Origin: Catajapyx aquilonaris
Taxonomy: Eukaryota
DNA: 64,000 nt
Assembly: GCA_000934665.2 (NCBI GenBank)
Contig: KZ538177.1
Coordinates: 1-64,000, forward strand
Direction: 5' to 3'
In this document: in pieces, positions 2,569-56,394 of the stretch
Position numbering within the stretch: position 1 is the stretch's first letter
Layout of the letters: every line of letters begins with the position of its first letter
Position numbers and translations under genes: made by a program
Notes under the pieces: generated by a model
What the model was told of the DNA's origin: nothing
Databases searched by the model: none
What the model saw: only the letters and a program-made list of their open reading frames with translations

Positions 2569-2846
2569 TCATACCCCGTTATCAGCCTATCGGCTCTTTA
2601 GGGGGGAAGTTTTTTTTTGTTTTGCCTGGAACTCTTTGCTTTCATTATACTGCGCTTTTTGGGATAGGATAGGGACGGAAGAAGCGGCTGTGGCCTATTA
2701 ATTACGAAAGCAACTCCGTAATTTTCCTGGAAGGACCGTGGGAAACCACAGAAAACCACGGTCAGAGTTGCCGGCCCCGGGATTTGATCCCAGGACCTCC
2801 CGATTAGCAGTCGGACGCCTTATCCACTATGCCAACCTGCTTCGGT
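2518..2846 (-). mobile_element. tRNA-derived SINE (Talua-like core) with (TTA)n tail
   Basis: Minus strand has A-box TGGCATAGTGG and B-box-like GGATCAAATCC. The core GAAGAAGCGGCTGTGGCCTA..CCTGGAAGGACCGTGGGAAACCAC resembles termite/cockroach SINEs as recalled. The (AAT)n at 2518-2567 is the tail. TSD AAAAGCTTGA(A/G)TAT at 2504-2517 and 2847-2860. Confidence 0.88.
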
Positions 2847-20945: not shown

Positions 20946-22433
20946 GAACAGGGAGTGATCGACGGGTCAATCGCCCGAAAAAAAAAAAAATTATGATCGA
21001 GTTTCTACCAAAGAAGTCCATTCGGCCTCAGGTTCGTACTTGATATATGACTATGACATAGAGGCCATTGTACGTGTTGTGCGACGTAAGGCATGTGAGC
21101 CACACCAAGGAACAGCTGCTAGAAGACATGCATGGCGCACTTGAGCGGGGCCTGGGGAACAAATTTACAATCAACAATCGGCAGCATGAAATAATATGAG
21201 GAGGACACAGTGGCAGAACGGGACATCACTGCGTCACAAGAGAGTGCAACATGGGGTGTGACCAAAACATGCCGTAACTACCCATCCCAGTTGAAGTTAT
21301 GAAGATGTAACATATTTTACATTTCTATAGTAAATTTATTTATTCCATTAATTTATATTTGTTGCCACACTATTAATATTGCAATTACGAAGACATCAAG
21401 AACGACATGAGCTGGTCTACAGCATATTGTACGAAATAAATGTACGACCATGAATGACACTCCCTGTTATGATAGGGCCCTCGACGCCCTTTTGCGGCCC
21501 TCGAGCATGCTCTCTGAGTAAGACACGTTTACTGAATGTCAACAATAGCTGCCAGTTGACAACCTGATAGTCATGCCAATTGGCCAACAATAATTATTAT
21601 ACAGCTCCCCCTTTCAGCGGGGAATTACACGGTTATCAACTGTTATCATACAGGATTTCACCCTTATGTATCATTTTTAATGGGCTCTATTACCGTGCCT
21701 CAAATACTCCAAACTAAAAGTAGGAAGTGGGAGATGATCTCAAATATTAGAGTAGTGCATACATTCGTAAAGGACATGTAGTAGGCCTACCTTATCAGAG
21801 CAATACATTCGAGTGTGCTGCTTCATAACTTTCCAAATATGATAGGCTACTAATTATTTCAAACATTAGATACAGTTGCATCGTAAATAATCCAAATGCT
21901 GTCCGGCTTGGGTGGCCCTGCCAATAGATGAAGTTACTGCTAAAGTTCAAGCAAGATAGAACAAGCTGATAGAACAAGCTAGTATTTTATAACACAACAA
22001 CTACAGTACGCTGCTGCCATGCTTTTTGGTATGTAGGGTTATTTAATAAACACATGACGCCTGGAAAATGAACTGAATCCAAAACTGTATCCAAAAATTT
22101 ATGACAAAATGACGCGACGTAAACAATAAGTTCGCACCTGGATGCGACATGTGAAAACACTTATCTCCTAAAATAACTTGACAGTACAGCACACTTGCAA
22201 CTTATTTTTGCTTTCCCAAACTGTTAAAATTTTCACTGAACAGTATATCCTCAGAAACTGGATCATCTCCCAACAATTGCAACTGCATGAACCCCTGACA
22301 GATATTCCTTTACAAACATTGTGTCGACACAGTGTTCCTTCTTCACTCTTATCTGATCCTACTTGCAGTGGCAGTAACACGGCCTCTGACCATATACGAT
22401 ATTTTGCTGAAAAGACACCATTGAGGCTCTTAA

Positions 22434-24836: not shown

Positions 24837-25921
24837 GTTTTTTCATAAGAAAATGGATGCCGATATTATAATTCTGACTTCATATTCACAATCAGCGCCT
24901 ACTAATACATGAGAGAGACCAAAAATGGCGTCTGACACAAAACCCAATGTTGCCCAATAAATTAATGATATTTATTGAGCTATGTAATGAGGCCTACTCT
25001 CGGGAAAGTAAGGCCAGTTACAAGAAAATGGATGCCGATATTGAAATGTCGACTTCAACTTCGGTGTCACTCCATACCAATTACACAATAAGACGTGAAA
25101 ATGGCGCAATTAACAAAACCATCGCTGACCATATATTAGTCATATTGAGCAATGTGCAGTGTACTTTCCGCAAAATAAATGTCTGTGATGGACGCTATCT
25201 AATTTCATATTCGGAATCAGCTCAAAATGAGCTAAAACAATAGTTAATGTGCCAAAATCATTGTTGACTAGTGATTCTTATTTCCTGTCCACAACTTGCC
25301 TCATAGTAAATAGCTGCAAATCGCAACAAACGTCTCAGGAGTTATGAAAATCGCTCTTGCGTGTACTGTACGTGTCGGAGTCAAGGCTACCGCGGCCAGG
25401 TTGGTCACCGTGTGCATCACACCGAATATGACAAAAATTTTGACTAAAGTGTGACTCAGTTTTGTATTTAATATCATTACACTCGTGCATTACACAAATC
25501 AGAAATCACTGCTGGCACAATAAGTCACTGTTTCCTCAAAGCAGAGTAATTAATTTCACCGTCATCGCAATCTAATTTCTACGAGCCACTTCCGAGCAAC
25601 TATCTCATGATATCCAAAGACACACATTTTACTTCTTGAATAATTAACAGAGCTAACGGATGCTGTCTTCGCACCAAACAGTGCACCTGATGTATCTCAA
25701 TACATTTCCCCGCCTACCGATGACTTAACATTAATCCTGCTGACTCAAGAAACCGGGAGAACCTGATGTCGTCAAGGTAATGCAGTTGCAACATATGCAT
25801 TAACTCGCCACCAATAATAATTGTGAAATTAAACCGCAACATTTTAACAGAGGGTGGATTTTAAAAACACCGAGCCTGAAGTAGGAGTAAGCTGAAGAGG
25901 AACATGTAGTACACTGTACGG

Positions 25922-26068
25922 TTTGGTTTGGTTTATTAGGAAGAAGCCAAAGCAACTGTGGCTATCTGGCTGTAAGAAGAAGCAAAGGTGGGACAGATGG
26001 AGAGAGAAACAAAGAGGAAAAGGAAGAGAGGAAAGACTGGTATCTCTCTTAGTCTGTCTCCTATCCCA
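25922..26068 (-). mobile_element. 5'-truncated copy of the structured-head SINE
   Basis: Near-identical to 42235-42382. TSD AGTACACTGTACGG at 25908-25921 and 26069-26082. (CCAAA)n tail on the minus strand. Confidence 0.92.
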
Positions 26069-29000
26069 AGTACACTGTACGGCATATGACGCAGTATCAC
26101 GTTGTACGTCATTGGAGTATCGTAAATCTCATTTTGGACTTGTTAGATTTTTTTTTTTTTTTGAAAGTGTTAGGGCTTGAAATGTGCTACCTAGTGATAC
26201 AATAATCATACACTTATTGAAGGGATAAGGTACACATTTGACGTTTGCAATAATTAATGAGAAAAGGCACCCTTCTTTCAACATTTTTCACTTATTCTTG
26301 AAAGGGTTATTGCAAAGATTGAAGATAACAGCAATAATGCTTCAGAGTTTCCGTTGGCGGAACTCTTAACGCTGCGGAGGTCCATCAGCCGATTGAAGGA
26401 CGTGTGTAGGTTGCCTTCGTCAGCCAGAAGCAGGAAGAATTGTAACTGGTGACGATGGAGGTCAGATGTGCGGGGTTGGAAGTTGAAAATGTACTGTACT
26501 AAAGGCGGAGAACTTCTGAGCTGGCTGTGAGGTTGCCACACCATTCCATCGCTCGTCTTCACACTGTTAATGAATGTTCATTCTCAATGGGCAGAACTGG
26601 TGCACCAGGTGGACTTTGACGACATCTTTTGCTAATTATTGTGAGGAAGCATTCAGCTGAACAGCAGCAGCACAACAACAGATACAAATAACACCATATA
26701 AGAAATCTGTAAGAAATTTAAACTACGTCGCAAGACAGGTCTTGGCAGCCATCAACAGCAAGAAGAATGTGTGACAAGTGCCAGCATAGAATAGCAACCA
26801 GAAGTCTGGCTGGAACAACTTTCTTTCTTTCTTTCTTAAGCAGTATGATGCAACAAACTTGCATCTGTTGCCTCATTTACAAATGTGCGGTAACATTCTT
26901 CGAAACAATTGTTACGACTTGAAATGTGATAACAATTGATACCATAATAATGCCCATGTGAGGGAAAAGTTACACACACTACGTTTGCAATACATATTAA
27001 TTCGATACCTGTAATTGCACACTCGACTCATCACTGTGTCAGAGTTACGGCGACCCAACCATAAAGGTCCCGCGCAAATGTATCTCATCAGGGAGGGGGT
27101 GGTTAATAAATGTGGTTGTCTGGCATGGTGGTCTGGCGGCATATGGTATATATCAATATCTATTTCAATAATGAAGCACTGTGGCGCTGGGTTTGTCAAA
27201 ATTGTCAAACAGAAAGAAAAAATTGTCAAGAGATGGCGTAGGTCGTCGGCCGTAATAACTCGACTCATCACTAATACATTGTTACCAACAACATACAACA
27301 CATTCCAACGGATCAGACGCACTTCAGAGTCTGCTTCTTCATGACCTACAATTTACAAATATGATAATTATTTCAACCGGTAGGTATATTTGCACCATAA
27401 ACAATCCCATTGCTAGTATACCACAAGATATCCATACACTGGATGTAAATGTAGCATGCGATAGAGTATAATAGTGAGCGCCCTAGGTCAGCCAAGAATG
27501 GAAGACGATGCCACCGGAAGCCCATCATATGATTCTCTGGCGATGGTTCAACATCAGTACAGCATATTATCCTTATGCACCGGCCCTATTTGTGTTAGAT
27601 CAAACCTCTAGCCGAGATGCCTTTCCAGCATTGCATCTTCCATGTCTTCTTTCTTCACTCTCATCTGGTCAGGTACGTTCGTCTCACCAGTGACAAGGCC
27701 TCTTGCCATCTCTTTTGATGAAAAAGACAACATTGAGGCTCCTAATAAACGCGTTCTCGCACACCCAAACGGCAAACGCAAAGCCTCAAGTCACCAGCGA
27801 AACTGCAAGGATATGTCTAACTACTCTAACCCATCTAACTGAGACAATATGCCATGATATGACTGCTTTCGGTCATGCGCAGCATTCTACTGAATTCGAG
27901 ATAAAACGATGTCTATCCAGGAACTGATACAACAAGAGGCAAGACGACAGAGACTTCTGTCACGTTTTCCCGAGAATAGAGGCTCATCTGAAGCATGTAA
28001 CATTGTAATTACTGTACCTTTCTATTTTGAATTAAGTATTACCACAAATGCTTCCAATGGTTTGGTTTATTCGGAAGAAGCCATAACACACATCTATATG
28101 GCTTCCAATATGTACTACTACATTCGACGTTAGACCAAGGATACTGAAACACTATACTTTTTGGGAAACAGTGCACATAATAATATTACTAGTTTAAATG
28201 TGATCAGAAGGTTCTCGGCTGGATTTGTAACGCACCTATGGCCATTTGGCTATTTGAAAATACAGAGATGTGCATTCGAGCCAAAAAAAAAAAAAAAAAG
28301 CCATGCTCCATACACTTACTGCTTCAAATAGCTGTCACACTAACATTTATTTACTTACAAAGTTAGTGGCAATCTTGACTTGCCTAACATCCGTTAACAT
28401 CACATTATGAAATGGAACGAAGATTCAGTAATGCACCTGGAAGAGTAATGTCTGGTCCACTCATCATTCGGACTGCCACACAAACTTATTGTGTACCTTC
28501 TGTGTACTTTTACATGGCGGTATGGCCGTATATCATGTCTCTGTCGGCGACGAAGTTTTTACCCAAATTGGCAAGATGAGTTAAAAGAACAATGGGGGGT
28601 GGTACTTAATACAATTATCTTCATAATGTCACAGATGGTGCTGGGTATCATAATATAAATTCAAATAACACTAACTATAATAATAAGAGGGCGCTGGGTG
28701 TAATAAAGATGCTGTCGGATAGATCTCAACTATAGAATATAAATAACAGCCTTTAATAATATATGGCGCTGGAGTGTCCAGTAGGAAGAACGGTGGTTCT
28801 CCGTAACTATACTATACTATCAAACAATATAATAGATGGCGTTGTCCAGAGTGATGGTCGTAGATGGACATCTTGTTCTCTTTCAATTGTTAACTACGAT
28901 CATATATATTTTGCTCCTTTAATAGAAGGGGGAGCAGGTAAATAAGCAGTGACATATTACATTACCTCAACTACACGTATGGATGTGCAATAATTTTCAT

Positions 29001-41342: not shown

Positions 41343-42234
41343 ACTTCACTCTACTGTGCTTTTTACTGCACAGCGACGTATAGTCTACCATCTGAAGGCG
41401 TAATCTATGGTCACACTTGAACTATTTCTGCCTATAAGACCTATAAGGATTCCATCAATAATTGCAGAGTGCATGGGACGGACGTTATGTGGCACACCTT
41501 TTTCAAGCACAACTTGCGATTCGCGGATGCATGCTCAATCAGAGCTCATTACACCTGCAAGAAACAGGCTTTTGCATAAGATTTCACACCAAATAAGGTA
41601 TTTCACTAAAGTGTGACTCTGTTTTGTATTTCATATCATTATACTGGTATACATTACCAAATCCAAGACAAAATCACAAACCAATAAATCATTGTTTCTT
41701 CAAAGCTTAGTAATAAATTTCACCGACCTCTTAGCATCGAGACTAGCACATACAGCAATTAACTATTCTCAGGCAGGATTTCTTCCCTTCGTAATCTTTG
41801 ATTGACAGCATTATTTTGCCTCAAATATTCCTAACATAAAAGGGGACGATAGACATCCTCTCAAATAATGGAGCAACGCATGCTTTCCTGCAAATACATT
41901 ATGAAGGTCCTTCAGTCGAACCAGTTCCTGATCCTATTAATGCAAAATGTTAAAACTGGAAAAGCTTGAAGTCAAAAAGGTATTATTTAAAGCATGCTGA
42001 ATGAATTTGGTCTTGAAACTCCTGGGGTAAAGTACAAGTAGGTGACGGAGACGACAGATTTATTCAGCCAGTGAGACGAGTGCACAAGTAACATGTGGTT
42101 ACTGCGCACATGCTGTCAGCTTGGCTCTAAACGAATGCAAATAAATCATATTCGCCAAAAAAGACCTTTATCATATTTATATCATGTACCATTGAAATTG
42201 ATAACAAGGCAGAACATTGACACTGCATTAGTGA

Positions 42235-42500
42235 TTGGTTTGGTTTATTTGGAAGAAGCCAAAGCAACTGTGGCTATCTGGCTGTAAGAAGAAGCAAAGG
42301 TGGGACAGATGGAGGGAGAAACGAAGAGGAAAAAGAAGAGAGGAAAGACTGGCATCTCTCTTAGTCTGTCTCCTATCCCAAAGACCTGTCCGGCTTGGGT
42401 GGCCCTACCAGTAGACGAAGCTACCGCCGGCATAGCTCTTGGGGTCATGGGAGAAACGCAAACCCCACCACCACGATAAGGTGGAGATACCATCGGGGGG
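42235..42500 (-). mobile_element. Full-length non-tRNA SINE with structured RTE-like head (copy A)
   Basis: 266 bp. 12-bp TSD CTGCATTAGTGA at 42223-42234 and 42501-42512. 3' tail TAAACCAAACCAA. One substitution from the copy at 46504. Confidence 0.93.
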
Positions 42501-42902
42501 CTGCATTAGTGAAGTAAAGACACAAAACCTTACTACAACACCTGACTACAATGCAACAAACATGCATGGTAAGTTTTCAAAATAGACATGCACATATTGC
42601 GCAATAACCTTAGCCACAAATCAGTCAGGAAATGATGTCAGTGTACAGCGCCAGATTTCCCATTAACCACAGTAGGCACTTGCCTAAGGGCCGCTTAGGG
42701 GGGATCCGATCCAATGACCACATATCAAACACGGCGCCAGTCTGAGTAAGTCATAATTGTACATGGTTCAAAATATTGTTGTCTGTCTTCATGAAGCGGA
42801 AGCATGGGAGGGCCACAACTTCTCCAATCCCCATGTATAAGCATTTTTCACCAGATAAGCCAGTTAATTTTTTTACTCCTTAAGTTATTCAATAGACCAA
42901 CT

Positions 42903-46200: not shown

Positions 46201-46503
46201 GGACTAACAGCAAGTCACCAATGATGGTATATAATCAGGCTACGTTATATGCCCTAGGACATCGCTGGCTATACCCCATTTAATATGGGACAACGCCGTG
46301 ATGTACAATCAATCAATCAGTCTATCTGTGCTCATTGCACTGTGGATATAAGTAGATGCAGACATGATTGTGGCCCATGCAAATTGACAACTATTCATCA
46401 TTCATTATGGGCGACATCAAGGCGACATCAATTTTTACAGCTGAGAAGACAGCATGGTGTCCATCATGCAGAGCACCTCTAGACATCATTCTGGACCTCC
46501 AGT

Positions 46504-46769
46504 TTGGTTTGGTTTATTTGGAAGAAGCCAAAGCAACTGTGGCTATCTGGCTGTAAGAAGAAGCAAAGGTGGGACAGATGGAGGGAGAAACGAAGAGGAA
46601 AAAGAAGAGAGGAAAGACTGGCATCCCTCTTAGTCTGTCTCCTATCCCAAAGACCTGTCCGGCTTGGGTGGCCCTACCAGTAGACGAAGCTACCGCCGGC
46701 ATAGCTCTTGGGGTCATGGGAGAAACGCAAACCCCACCACCACGATAAGGTGGAGATACCATCGGGGGG
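46504..46769 (-). mobile_element. Full-length non-tRNA SINE with structured RTE-like head (copy B)
   Basis: 266 bp. 12-bp TSD TGGACCTCCAGT at 46492-46503 and 46770-46781. Same 5' end (CCCCCCGATGG) as copy A. Confidence 0.93.
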
Positions 46770-49724
46770 TGGACCTCCAGTCACTGTCATCAGTTTGAAT
46801 TTCTTGCTTCAATGGGTTGAGCTGCAGTGGACGAACAGCTGAACTTGGCCAAGTCTTATAGTCATGCAGCTAGAAGTGAGTCGAAGAGTCTGCCGATCCC
46901 AAGCACATTCATATTAAACCATATCCCATTTAAAATGTCAGCAGCTCCAGGAATTTTCCAAACATGTATTAACTCTCTTTTGGAAGCATTGAAAAGCATT
47001 GCATAACCAGGTTAATAAGATTGCTTCAATGACTACAGTCTGCAGGTTTGCATCTGAAGGAGGAGGAATGTGGACCCTATGAATCCACTGTAGAGCAATA
47101 CTTAGGTTTCCAGGTGGACTCCGATGAAATTCATGCAAATTAGAAGACCGCAAAACGGCACAAACCCCAAGTGCCTACAAACCAGGAAGAAACTGAGCTA
47201 CAGTTCTCCGTAAACCACAAACGAGTATTCTTGGAGTTATCCTTGTCTGCTACAGTGATAAACTGCAAAGACGAAGGGAAAAACCATTTTCATATGACAG
47301 GAAAGGGACTATGGGTCCTTTGCCTGGACCACATAATATACAGATCAATTTACTTCCAGTTTGCTAAGGACTTTCTTACATTGAACAATGGTCTTGGCCC
47401 ACAGTTATCTGATAAAGCTGGTCAGAATGAATACACTTTGTAGGCTAAACTGACATGGTACCATCCTATATTGCCGAGTAAATATCACACAATATTGCTG
47501 TTGCTTTGGATTATTTTGAATAACAGTTCCAGGAACTGTCGATAAAACGTTGATGGCACAAAAGTACCCTGATTGTGAGCAATACTGAGACAACCATCAG
47601 GGAGCAACACACCAAAATGAGTTCAGGTGATATGTTATACTTGCAATAATTAATTGTAACGTACACAGGTATATCATCTAGTCAAGCTCTACCTTTGTCA
47701 AGCCTCATACTTATATATCATATTTTGTGTAATAATGGTACAATAGTCAAATCACCATTGATGACTTCATTTCCCAATAAATTTATTTGTCATTACAGAG
47801 TTTCCATAGGTAGACGTTTGTTTGGATGGGACGGAGCCAAAACTACAAGTACCTGGCTATGAGAAGGTTGAAAGATTATGGAAAACATCCAGACAAACTA
47901 AGAGAATAAAGAAGAGAGGAAAGTCTTCTGTCCCACCTCGTCTCCCTCAACACACAGCTTTGCTGCTTTTTCAAAGATTGCTGCAAGGCAGTTTCTCTGT
48001 CGTCTCGTTTAGTCATTTAATTTTAATTTGGTTAAAAAAAACGTGCTAAGGTTTTCCTCCTGAAGAAGGTTTTTAGTCAATTCTTTGGTTGTGTAAAGAG
48101 AAAAAGAGTCGGAATCCGACATTATTTATGTCTTTCATTAGGTTGAGTATAAAAGTCGTAATACGACATTGTTGATGTCCATCATCAGATTATTGTGAAA
48201 GTCGCAAGACTTTTGAATAATATTATGAACAATTTGTCAAGCTTTGTCGCGCGTCGGAGCAATTCGGTGTAAATTTTGAATTTCAAGCGTCGCGCGATCT
48301 AGGTGGCGTTGACCAATCTCAGCTTTATTTTGCACTTAGGGTGTTTTTTCTTCTTCTTTCTTTTCTCTTAAGGCAAGTTCACTCCAAGTCTCTCGTCTTA
48401 GTTATGCAGTTTTCAGAAAATGTTAAGTATAAGTTAAGTAATAAGTGAGCACATGTTGTTAGTGATAAGGAAACAATTTTTGGAAATAGTGTAACAATGG
48501 ACAAATCTTGGACCGGTGTGTGAAGTGAAGTGAAAGTGACAATCTCACTTTGAACAACAACAACAAAACAAAGCCTGTGATGGCGGTGCTGCCAGTGACA
48601 TTTTGCAGCATTTGCTGGAAAGGGGGTGAACTCTCTTGTGGGGGGAACTCAAAAGTGTGGAGTCTGTTCCAATGGGTACCTTAGTATGATTTTAGGCTCC
48701 TTTGCCCAGTGTATCCGGAGGTTGATTGGCGGGGCTTGGTTGGTGCCGAGGTGGTGGCCTTTGACCGGTGGGGTTGAGATCCTCAAAGCTGTGGGGATTC
48801 TCTGGTTGTTTTTGGAACCTAATTGATTCTATGGGATTGGTTACATTTACACCTACTCTTGTTGCAATGTATAATTGAGCGATTGTTGGGAGTAATGTAA
48901 TTTGGCTGTCTCAGGTTATGAGTACATTGAATCCTCTGTGAACTGCGCACTGATGTAATCTGAGATTTAGCTGATGACACACTCTTTCACTACAGGCTTT
49001 GCTAATTGGTAATGGTTGCACTGTGAAGCAACAAGAGGTTTTGTAATTGTTGGTTCTCCAGCACAGTGGAGAACCATAGTTGAAATTTTTTGGATATCTT
49101 GCCTGAGATGGCAGGCTCATCAGCTGACATTCCATAAACTCCTGTAATCACGGCAGGTATGGATTACGCGAGGGTCTGGAGTGTGGGAAAAATTTAATGA
49201 TGAATGGAGTATTGGTTGATGAATTAATTGGTACTCGTTCTACCATGGGTTATTCGGAACTAAGCTGGTGAGTCACAACGGGTGGTTTATTTTTGTGGAT
49301 TTTTTTTTTAAATGCTTGCACACTGGGGATGGGTTGGTTTACTACTGTAGCGTGCTGCAGTGGATAACCATGTAAGAATTTTGGCTCGGGAGAATAATAA
49401 TTTGATTTTAAAGAAATCTGTCTCGACTACATTTTTTTCCGGGTTTGCTCACTTCATCCCACTTTGGGGGACACGCCCCTTCGGATTGTTTTCGCAGTCC
49501 GGAGGCCCTCACACTTGGCTGACCTTGCCAGTATACCAGCTACCACCATAATTTTACCTCTCGGGATTTGCATAGCACAGAGACCCTCACCAACACAATA
49601 TGGAAAGATCAGTGATCATGGAGAGGGCCATTTGGCATTTGATGTCATTAACAGACGATCATAAATATTTTTGTTTATTATAAACTGCCTTTGACATGTA
49701 TTATTAAATAGAATACCAAAAATA

Positions 49725-51768: not shown

Positions 51769-51929
51769 GAGAGGAAAGACTGGTATCTCTCTTAGTCTGT
51801 CTCCTATCCCAAAGACCTGTCCGGCATGGGTGACCCTGCCAGTAAACGAAGCTACCGCCGGCATAGCTCTTGGGGTCATTGGAGAAACGCAAGCCCACCA
51901 CCACGGCAAGGTGGAGATACATAGGGGGG
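51769..51929 (-). mobile_element. Diverged copy of the structured head joined to a different downstream sequence
   Basis: Aligns to 42338-42500 with about a dozen differences. It continues (51768->~51640) into sequence unrelated to the SINE tail. Confidence 0.85.
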
Positions 51930-53532: not shown

Positions 53533-56394
53533 CTGAAACGTATCAGCAACGTTGGGTTATTAACATGTGGGTTCACACGTTGCCTTAGGTCGTTGTTGTT
53601 GTGATAGACCAATCAGTGGATCTCAACCGGAACGACCAACCAGCAATCCTCACCGTCAGTCGCAGCATGTGACACATGTTGAAGACCGGCTTCAGCAGTC
53701 CATTCACATGTTGAACCAGTGCTTGAGCAGCTACCAGCACATCTGCGTTCCCCCCTTCATTGACCGGTCGTTCATCTACGCACACACAATACTCCGGAAG
53801 CACACCGGCCTGGTAGCAGGTCCGGTCCTCAGGCACCAGCTGCCTCCAAAGAGACATACCATGGCGTGGAGGCCTGCCCAGAAACCCGTCCTCCCACATG
53901 TCCAGGTTCACATCCAGTAACATCTCGTGTACGTCGAACCAGCTGGTCAGTCTGTAGGAATTGTCTCGGAGATTGCGGTACAGGTATGGGTATTTGGCGT
54001 CTAACCATGCCGGAAGAACCATGGAAAAGAATGGCATGCGCTCTTCCAGGCGGCCGTACATAGTGGACCTGATGCTGTCGAACCTGTAAATTCAATATGG
54101 TGTACATGCTACAAATCATTACACAACTTTTGTGCGGTACCTGTTTCCGTGGTCGCCCATGACAATCACAATGGTATTATTCAGCACACCTCCTTCCACA
54201 TGTTCCTTCAGAAACTGGAACACATCGTTATCAATCAGTTGCGCACTGTTTATGTCCCCGTGCGTAATCTCCGAAATGAAGGAGAATGCAAAGTACGGGA
54301 TGTCCACATGCGTTTTAAGAAACTGTCTAGAGTATCGTAAAATCATATTGTGCATGGCCTCACTTCCGAAGCAATAGTCTCTGCTCTTCTTGAACAACTG
54401 GGTCTCTTCCATCGCCAACCAAAACGGTCGCATGTAATAGTCCACTGGGGTGTGGATGAACCCTTTTGTTGGGTAATTGAAAAGTGCGTATTTGGGCATA
54501 TCCTCCGCGTACAGTGTGAGGTATCCGACCTTCCTGAACGAGTACCAGAGAAGTGGCATGCCGTCCATGGTCATCGTCTCAAACTTACTCCTGGGCCATG
54601 GAAACTCGTGGAACATGTCGTGGTCCGACACCCGGAGTCCGGTCAGAAGTGGAATTATGTTGGGGAATGTGTTGTCCCCAACTTTGGTCAATCCTTTCAT
54701 CACCACGGCTCCTAAATCATGCGTTAGGTACCTGTAAGTCTGGTTCATCTGACGGATAAAGTTTTGCTGGGACATGGAGTCTATGGACAGTACGAATATG
54801 CTTGGTTGTGTTGCAGGCAATCGTGAAGTCCGGCTGCGATTGGAGTTCATTTTGGGGTAAATATGTACGTTTTCATACACCAGCTTTTTCTTGCGCTTGC
54901 ATTTCACGAGGCAAGTGTCAGTGGACAGGTACTGAGAGTTGCTCAGCTCCTGTAAAGTGTAATTTGACATGACAGGTCTGAGCAAAGGATAGTGAGAAAA
55001 GAAAGCGAGCCCCCAAGTCCACCTGGTATTAATCAAGTCCCTCGCTCCGGGGGTCAAGTTGGGGGTAGATAGGGTTGGAAGCGGGTTGGCAGGAGGACGC
55101 GGGGTCATTGCCATATGTACTGAAGCAATAATAATTACAATCCCATAAATATATTAATTTACAACTTGTTATAATTCAATCTTCATTTCTAACTATATTA
55201 AAATTTAAATTACTGTATATACTGTAATATTAGTTGTGATTCCGATCATGCAGGTCTTCATGCTCTGATGATAATTCTCACAATGTTACTATTGCTGTGT
55301 TCAAGGCTGTCAACTTTATTCATATCCTTCACACTTCGTCGCCTCCTTTATCATTCAGCAAGTGGTTTTGTATTGCGCACATGCAAATCCACGCATTCAT
55401 GTTATGCTGATAAAAGTACTGTACATGAAAAACACTTCATTACCGGTATACGTATATTGGGTTACATGCTATATTAGTAGAGAGAGCACACTCTTAGTAG
55501 TATCAATGATTCCTAATGTATTACCCTCATTAGTGCAAATATGAAGTCTGTTAACACTATAGCCTAACAGCAGCATTAGGCCTACTCATAAAATTTTTAC
55601 ACCGCAACAACAATGAAGTTTCACTTGCAATAAACGAACAACATCCGCGACTGTAAATAGATGTTGGTAGAAACGCTGCAATGGACACCGTTGTGCTCAT
55701 TGTAATCCTTGCGGATGAAGATTGACATCCGCATCCGTCTTTCGCATTGCATCATTTGAATGACATAATATGATTTCATACATCCACGTCTTTAAACACG
55801 GATGATGACGCTGAGTAATGAGCACGGCATCATGTATATTAGTGCATGTATTTTTTTTTTTGCTCATACTCATTACACCTTCAGATCTACGTCACTATTG
55901 TTGTTATCATAAGAAGTCCACACATGGCAACAATTGGGAGGCAACTTTGAACCTACCTTAGGCGACCCGTAGGCCAACTTGTTGTCATTTTCCAACCAAA
56001 CATCGTAGTACACACACTTGACTCCTGGATACTTCTTTTTCAATATTCTAAACGCCGTTTTGTCCACTCTCAGGACACCATCTTCATCCAGAAGAGTGAG
56101 CTCAAGGTGGTTCCCACTACATCGAAGGGGACGAGCTTTATGTACATACTCCTGGATACTTTTGTCAAACGGGTCCAGATGAGGAAGGACACATCCCAAT
56201 TTTTCCGATGTGGCTGAAATGTTGGCCAAGTGACGAAGGTCGACATGCCCGACCCTGGATACCATGTGCACCAATTTATCATAGGATGTCGTATGCATCC
56301 AGTAGCATGAATAGAGCAAGATAGCAGATACTACTAGGAGTAAGAGGCGTAGCTTGCCTTGCGGTTTTCCAATCAGTCTGTCTGGTTTTAACAT
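53260..56394 (-). CDS. DUF229-family protein (alkaline phosphatase/sulfatase superfamily, predicted type II membrane protein), 649 aa, 4 coding exons
   Basis: Exons 56394-55957, 54949-54141, 54083-53654 and 53532-53260 join in frame (1950 nt) at GT-AG junctions. N-terminal hydrophobic anchor LLLLVVSAILLY. Motifs C.LP.LDPFD, SIDSMS, KVGDNTFPN, YAED, P.DYY.RP, GDHG.RF, LEER.P, RTC..AG...YC.C, RIN.YG.QS.C..YC.C. Confidence 0.93.
53654..54083 (-). CDS. DUF229 gene coding exon 3
   Basis: 57-bp intron; acceptor TTACAG|G restores GDHGNRFDSIR. Donor ACG|GTGAGG. Confidence 0.9.
54141..54949 (-). CDS. DUF229 gene coding exon 2
   Basis: Acceptor TTACAG|GAG. Donor AG|GTACCG, phase 2. Confidence 0.9.
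55957..56394 (-). CDS. DUF229 gene coding exon 1
   Basis: ATG at 56394, downstream of an acceptor near 56425 (suggests an upstream non-coding exon). Donor AAG|GTAGGT, phase 0. Confidence 0.85.

Follow-up and report, generated by a model that had tools for sequence, protein, structure and literature searches.

Copies of a short retroposon in the window

The window analysed here is a 64,000-nucleotide stretch of the Catajapyx aquilonaris assembly GCA_000934665.2 (contig KZ538177.1, positions 1 to 64,000 of the forward strand). Two adjacent open frames of 344 aa and 168 aa (53585-55153, minus strand) match Pfam DUF229, the first at E = 4e-76 over profile positions 82-346 and the second at E = 1e-29 over positions 343-492. 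From these adjoining profile ranges they look like a single animal-type gene, either with two exons or in a copy that has been split. A tRNA-Ser (GCT) at 2769-2840 (minus strand) gave the window's only match at the Rfam gathering level and its only ARAGORN match. None of the 28 window ORFs of at least 120 aa is a reverse-transcriptase ORF.

The minus strand also carries two full-length, 266-bp copies of a non-autonomous retroposon. Copy A (42235..42500) is flanked by a 12-bp target-site duplication (TSD), CTGCATTAGTGA, at 42223-42234 and 42501-42512; we number the element so that position p corresponds to window coordinate 42501-p. Copy B (46504..46769) has its own 12-bp TSD, TGGACCTCCAGT, at 46492-46503 and 46770-46781. 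Both copies begin with CCCCCCGAUGG and they mismatch at 1/266 positions (99.624% identity by blastn), the sole change in copy B being A144 to G, after which U16 still pairs, as U.G. Alignment and inspection of the TSDs thus confirmed the first-pass annotation of this DNA, which had described two 266-bp copies one nucleotide apart, with separate 12-bp TSDs and a common start. Behind a structured head, the element continues into a pyrimidine-rich body and a 3' end reading ...CCAAAUAAACCAAACCAA (42235..42349, minus strand), with a T5 run at element positions 167-171 (window 42330-42334). Loose ends of sequencing-run contigs at 42235, 42238 and 42242 mark the 3' boundary.

Further copies in the window are partial. 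A 5'-truncated copy at 25921..26069 (minus strand) starts at about element position 120, continues to the 3' end and lies within its own 12-bp TSD, CGTACAGTGTAC. Copy C (51769..51929, minus strand) consists of the head only, matching element positions 1-163 at 92.6% identity, and is followed by different sequence. As the first-pass annotation had also noted, its similarity to the element ends just past the stem that closes the head, about 12 nt beyond it. We searched for a TSD at the copy C junction and found none. Because the copies have their own TSDs, share a 5' start and include a 5'-truncated example, we infer that they arose by target-primed reverse transcription by a LINE enzyme.

Two observations concern sequence at the margins of these copies. 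Beyond position ~165, copy C continues into ~140 nt of unrelated sequence (51769 to about 51620, minus strand) that ends in TTATTTATTTATA, and this tail may represent a second family that reuses the element head. At 28058-28083 (minus strand), a 26-nt stretch matches the extreme 3' end of the element at 96%, with ATTGGAAGC on both sides some distance off; one possible source is a very short, 5'-truncated insertion that carries additional bases at the 5' junction.

The element family is clearly very abundant. Across three sequencing runs of one sample, word depth, which is not equivalent to copy number, was about 40,000-120,000 within the element compared to about 27-41 in its flanks. In the same three runs the variant G148A (window 42353 C>T), which converts a U.G pair to U-A, accounted for 54-65% of word depth, and among the run-contig variants listed none fell in positions 42453-42500, the core of the head. 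Around 12-13 contigs per run depart from the reference behind 42444 (42444-42456), keeping ...GCAAG and then continuing as CCCCAACCCC (30 nt shown), which suggests a head subfamily with another sequence in the strands labelled P3' and P1' below.

Relatives of the head and a connection to LINEs

One exact-pattern scan of metagenome contigs yielded four related loci, L001-L004, at 81-85% identity. L002 and L004 are homologous over all 822 bp and contain one short element, which measures about 266 nt in L002 and about 248 nt in L004. A 14-nt direct repeat, with one mismatch, bounds this element. L003, whose source organism differs from that of the window, matches head positions 48-137 at 84% identity, about 150 nt upstream of the start of an APE-type ORF (...VVALQEIRWKRQG...). 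This ORF start seems frameshifted by eye; 59 aa of the ORF are available, and their database relatives carry the endonuclease family PF03372. Behind the shared domain, the segment CC.UGGUCCUCCAGGUUGGGG is common to L002, L004 and L003. Because the L003 domain precedes an APE-type ORF and this segment recurs in L002 and L004, we interpret the head as a LINE 5'-UTR module, and from their sequence the short elements look like internally deleted LINEs. The shared LINE 5' end by which a SIDE-type element is recognized is thus found over positions 48-137 in L003. The head is also modular, with the same head occurring on different bodies.

The automatic label on relatives of the L003 ORF is 'craniofacial development protein 2-like', which usually marks RTE/BovB-type elements. 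The RTE/BovB link is a lead rather than a clade assignment. The first-pass annotation had likened the head to 5' UTRs of RTE-clade LINEs: the relation to LINEs is upheld by L003 and its APE-type ORF, and the clade stays at the level of that lead.

Other collections were searched with parts of the head. The head pattern had 0 matches in a viral contig collection, and its sole match among genome contigs (L005) was set aside as a chance match inside a bacterial coding region. A full-text literature search with a 20-nt stretch of the head returned no paper. Within the window, a covariance model (R1) built from seven sequences found no further heads, its remaining matches being the truncated copy and, at E = 0.085, a 45-nt fragment at 21899-21943; copy C scored 165.7 bits, by construction, because it is among the seven source sequences.

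Covariation in the inner helices of the head

The innermost part of the head (42365..42460, minus strand), which we label P4 in the fit described below, comprises a basal 3-bp helix, the helices UCUCC/GGAGA and CCCAAG/UUUGGG, and a three-way junction with CCGGC/GCCGG that bears the hairpins GGUAG..CUACU and GGG-CCA-CCC. The minimum-free-energy fold of the first 156 nt contained this inner domain together with the closing stem and a CACC/GGUGG hairpin, and the 166-nt head showed no excess of folding energy over shuffled sequences (z = -0.09). We therefore turned to covariation, using copies A and C and the metagenome loci L002, L003 and L004 (n=5). Since MAFFT and model alignments wrongly placed a gap in two P4 helices for L002-L004, we used an RNAalifold alignment of the inner domain, in which 96.4% of cells across 28 predicted pairs were paired. 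Compensatory double changes were found at 8/28 pairs, compared to 0-3 when partners were slid by 1-3 columns, and the covariation score of 0.400 was matched by 0/500 shuffles. This covariation in relatives shows that UCUCC/GGAGA, CCCAAG/UUUGGG, CCGGC/GCCGG and the two hairpins are real helices.

The nested helices that the first-pass annotation had drawn in the minus-strand head are thus all present and real, exceeding chance by covariation with relatives and not by folding energy, and its view of the head as a conserved RNA domain is borne out by the covarying P4. Its reading of the differences among window copies also held. In copy C, U12.G148 becomes U-A and G80-C87 becomes G.U, so that pairing is kept, as it is at U16-A144 in copy B, and the remaining differences it listed fall in loops (UUAUCGU/UUGCCGU and CCA/UCA).

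Placement of a proposed HDV-like ribozyme core

HDV-family ribozymes have a nested double-pseudoknot architecture (PMC4908430, PMC13635239) in which P1 stacks on P1.1 and P4, P2 stacks on P3, and the cut falls at the first nucleotide of P1 (PMC4908430). According to the account in PMC3774820, HDV-like ribozymes are cut at a site determined by ~7 nt that pair with the ~7 nt directly downstream of L3/P3.

A nested double pseudoknot of this kind can be placed on the element head. The proposed 5' strand of P1 consists of C1-C6 and G7 (42494..42500, minus strand as for all parts that follow), paired at 5/7 positions here, with the predicted cleavage site directly 5' of C1, at the boundary between element and TSD. 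After a J1/2 of 1-2 nt comes the proposed 5' strand of P2, U9-C17 (42484..42492), which is the closing stem of the first-pass annotation and pairs at 9/9 positions in copies A and B with its 3' strand, G143-A151 (42350..42358). The P3 hairpin, (C18)ACC / GGU(G32), at 42469..42483 carries a 7-nt L3, UUAUCGU, at positions 22-28, and P3 is paired at 3/3 positions in five of seven sequences. Next follow the 3' strand of P1, G33-G38, with G32 set against G7, and then U39 and U40 (42461..42468); A24 of L3 would be the P1.1 partner of U39, and U23 faces U40. In this fit P4 spans element positions about 40-135, ~95 nt with the three-way junction included. The proposed J4/2 is A136 C137 U138 A139 A140 G141 A142 (42359..42365), with C137 (window 42364) as the candidate catalytic cytosine. 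As secondary structure, all five HDV helices can be placed in canonical order in the three window copies and in L002 and L004.

L001 and L003 fit this core poorly. L003 shares only the P4 domain, and its upstream sequence scored 2/7 for P1 and 1/9 for P2 in the model alignment; a core fitted to it by hand was not counted, because it required a 2-nt linker and, between P2 and P3, an insert of 14 nt. L001 (54-222) has a 12-nt duplication within the L3/P3 region, and in place of P4 it has other sequence with a repeated GGTCCAAATCCGC motif that appears again some 400 nt further along. L001 may thus be a chimera, or a copy that has decayed.

Covariation, position and motifs of the core

We examined the core helices across the window copies and their relatives, with an alignment that was model-fitted to P2 and P3 and not to P1 or P1.1. 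In copies A and B, the first nucleotide as defined by the TSD is also the start of P1; in the L002/L004 element, P1 starts no more than 1 nt from the start given by the direct repeat. P1 is paired at 7/7 positions in L004, 6/7 in L001 and 5/7 in L002 and each of the three window copies, and at its pair 2-37 three sequences have C-G and three have U-A. The window copies have a mismatch, C5.U34, and because 12% of random window 6-mers pair equally well with the G-rich P1' (at least 5/6), their P1 is weak evidence when taken alone. Most of the weight is borne by L004, with whose P1' just 0.5% of window 7-mers pair at a perfect 7/7.

For P1.1, the third position of L3 and the base after P1' form A-U in two sequences, copies A and B, and G-C in four, copy C, L001, L002 and L004, next to a U.U apposition (U23.U40). 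Two solved HDV-family ribozymes likewise have a P1.1 of one Watson-Crick pair (U:A) with U:U or C:U (PMC13635239), and a P1.1 of a single pair is described for L1TcRz (PMC3185411). P2 shows changes on both sides in 4/9 pairs. Over the whole core, double changes occurred at 7/20 pairs compared to 2-4 in slid controls, with a covariation score of 0.276 against 0.07-0.14, and the 16 cells with double changes, a count that takes in the poorly fitting L001 and L003, were equalled by 0/500 shuffles. P1, P1.1 and P2 thus covary, over only about four independent lineages.

In HDV the catalytic cytosine is C75 and the cleavage site carries a G.U wobble, and the L3 of the HDV/CPEB3 consensus measures ~7 nt, its first base being a conserved U and its sixth a conserved G. 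The element's L3 is UUAUCGU in copies A and B; copy C has UUGCCGU, and L001, L002 and L004 share UUGCUGU; U1 and G6 are retained in 6/6 sequences, and C5 is replaced by U in the three metagenome sequences. J4/2 is long, at 7-10 nt, and reads C-N-A-A in 5/5 sequences that align there (C-U-A-A in the window copies, C-A-A-A in L002 and L004). It offers two candidate cytosines, C137 and C133 (C133-A-G-A). Among seven sequences the first P1 pair is C-G in four, U-G in one and unpaired in two, and it is not the G.U of HDV type. Published accounts report that the L3 G is important in HDV-like ribozymes (PMC3774820), that a catalytic C57 has A60 three bases on (PMC13635239), and that P4 is highly variable among R2 ribozymes (PMC3774820).

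A strict HDV-type descriptor, composed after the sequence had been inspected, accepted each of the three heads and, elsewhere in the window, a single poly-T site; dinucleotide shuffles gave a background of 0.575 sites per 64 kb on both strands. It was substituted for a first, looser descriptor that was too permissive and accepted several unrelated window sites. The poly-T tract, in the region of 24043 (minus strand), looks like a low-complexity artefact.

These results revise the first-pass annotation, which could fit no HDV core and proposed an uncharacterised ribozyme. An HDV-like double pseudoknot does fit, with P1 starting at the TSD-defined first base and with P1, P1.1 and P2 covarying, and the proposal of an uncharacterised ribozyme is not supported.

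Searches of RNA-family models and Pol III signals

Rfam includes hammerhead, twister, hatchet, pistol and HDV-type families. At E<=10, searches of window 42150-42600, of the 46-nt core alone (42458-42503) and of the relatives L001-L004 returned no Rfam family, whether HDV-like or of another type, and no HDV-type family reached its gathering score anywhere in the window. The Rfam scan that the first-pass annotation had proposed thus found no known family for the element, its core or its relatives. The Rfam HDV models would be penalised by a P4 of 95 nt.

We also considered whether the element could be a classical Pol III SINE whose head derives from an unrecognised small RNA and retains degenerate A and B boxes. 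The sites that speak for this are an A-box-like match, TATCGTGGTGG, at position 23 with two mismatches and a B-like match, GCTTCGTCTAC, at position 80 with three, at tRNA-like spacing. These are the best matches in the element, in line with the absence of A and B boxes stated in the first-pass annotation. The B-like site, however, is the loop and stem of a hairpin that changes with compensation among relatives, and the T5 run at positions 167-171 would halt Pol III ~95 nt short of the 3' end, which a LINE reverse transcriptase has to recognize. Across window 42150-42600, models of tRNA, 5S, 7SL and snRNA gave no match at E<=10, and ARAGORN predicted no tRNA at the element. The domain is also located in a LINE 5' UTR, and on this evidence a Pol III origin appears highly improbable. 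We also considered whether the junction resembles the 7SL Alu domain and dropped the idea because the Rfam search gave no SRP match.

Interpretation of the head

Together, our results suggest that the head is an HDV-like 5'-processing ribozyme on a LINE-derived short retroposon, a reading to which we assign a probability of roughly 0.6. If active, it would be a further member of the known HDV-like kind, and it may coincide with an RTE ribozyme that has already been listed; ribozymes of RTE and baggins elements and ribozyme-bearing SINEs have been reviewed (PMC6765202).

We propose that the element is a short, internally deleted LINE derivative, probably of RTE type, that would behave as a SIDE- or SINE-like parasite joining a LINE 5'-UTR head to a short 3' end. 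Its promoterless copies would be transcribed by read-through from upstream host transcription. The first ~151 nt of such a transcript would fold into an HDV-like self-cleaving ribozyme with an unusually large and conserved P4, in a double pseudoknot composed of P1 (C1-C6/G33-G38), P1.1 (A24-U39 and U23.U40), P2 (U9-C17/G143-A151), P3 and P4. A cytosine in J4/2, for which C137 is the candidate, would serve as general acid for a cut directly 5' of C1, and the product would be an RNA with a 5'-OH that starts at the element's first base. The reverse transcriptase of a partner LINE may then copy this product by target-primed reverse transcription, which would give rise to 12-bp TSDs, identical full-length 5' starts and 5'-truncated copies. 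On the present model, self-cleavage is the best-supported mechanism by which the 5' end could be defined.

The head could alternatively be a structured LINE 5'-UTR module that does not cleave and acts as an internal Pol II promoter, a platform for LINE protein or a stabilising cap-proximal fold, the pairing of the 5' end with the G-run then being just one more helix. Conservation and covariation are indeed best in the P4 three-way junction and not in the core, the LINE 5' UTR in L003 shares the P4 part alone, no Rfam ribozyme matches, and the P1 of the window copies adds little by itself. There are also precedents, in which the first 77 nt of L1Tc act as promoter plus ribozyme (PMC3185411, PMC3383444) and the R2 protein binds its own 5' RNA (PMC6765202). 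A module without cleavage would, however, leave unexplained why sequence after P3 is complementary to the first bases in two different TSD-bounded elements and why the third position of L3 covaries with the base after P1'. The 7-nt U...CG. loop and the C-N-A-A motif stand at the places where an HDV fold requires them, and a promoter would need to start transcription exactly at C1. We therefore consider a purely non-cleaving head somewhat unlikely; by analogy with L1Tc, a promoter or handle function may coexist with cleavage.

The absence of a match to any Rfam ribozyme family, the three-way junction as the most conserved part of the head and the lack of a G.U at the proposed cut site would also be expected of a self-cleaving or 5'-processing RNA of a new class, with its catalytic centre in the junction and a merely coincidental HDV-like drawing. 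Five HDV helices can nevertheless be placed in canonical order, three of them covarying, and we found no feature that demands a new fold, which makes a new class very unlikely. Rather doubtful, in our estimation, is a related proposal in which the ~95-nt junction, instead of passively extending P4, forms a second functional module fused into the ribozyme, a handle for the LINE protein or a signal for translation or packaging, that the SINE keeps for its own mobilisation; in its extreme form, this module would be the catalytic centre of a new ribozyme class. If such a module existed, the head would unite a ribozyme with a recruitment device, and the LINE and its parasites would share it across species.

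Comparison with known systems

As an HDV-like ribozyme, the head would agree with described examples in its location at the extreme 5' end and in the order P1, P2, P3-L3, P1', P1.1, P4, J4/2 and P2' (PMC3774820, PMC3185411, PMC4908430, PMC6765202). P1' directly after P3, a P1.1 with one Watson-Crick pair and a variable P4 are likewise shared with the ribozymes treated there, as is the proposed role, release of the element from a co-transcript. It differs from them in having no Rfam match and a C-G rather than a G.U pair at the cut site. Its P4, a conserved ~95-nt three-way junction, shows covariation between species, its J4/2 is long, and its activity is predicted.

Among short retroposons, the closest parallels are R2 SIDEs, which combine a 5' ribozyme with a 3' end (PMC3414825), and NARTc. 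Like the element, these are described as ~250-270 nt long, with a LINE 5'-UTR head and a short 3' end (PMC3414825, PMC3185411, PMC3383444), and as having the TSDs and 5'-truncated copies typical of target-primed reverse transcription. The element is not site-specific, unlike these, and they join a LINE 5' ribozyme to a LINE 3' end, which for the element is a prediction. R2 SIDEs are described as rare, whereas the word depth of the element is roughly at least 1000 times that of its flanks. In schistosomes, SINE-like elements with a hammerhead (Sm-alpha) or twister variants provide further cases in which a self-cleaving RNA in a short retroposon or LINE sets RNA ends (PMC6765202, PMC8501958). 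Those ribozymes belong to other classes, and no hammerhead or twister model matched the element, which in addition is not tandemly arrayed in the window. Against these systems, the element stands out by its conserved and covarying 95-nt P4 junction, its invisibility to current models and its very high abundance.

If cleavage is confirmed, the element would be a very abundant, recently active, promoterless short retroposon that owes its 5' end to an HDV-like ribozyme. It would represent a lineage missed by current Rfam models and would show how far P4 can be elaborated and conserved. A LINE and short parasites with one head would also provide a natural system for studying whether the ribozyme domain also recruits reverse transcriptase. 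For genome annotation, our results serve as a warning that heads recorded as 'non-tRNA SINE heads' may be ribozymes masked from model scans by large insertions.
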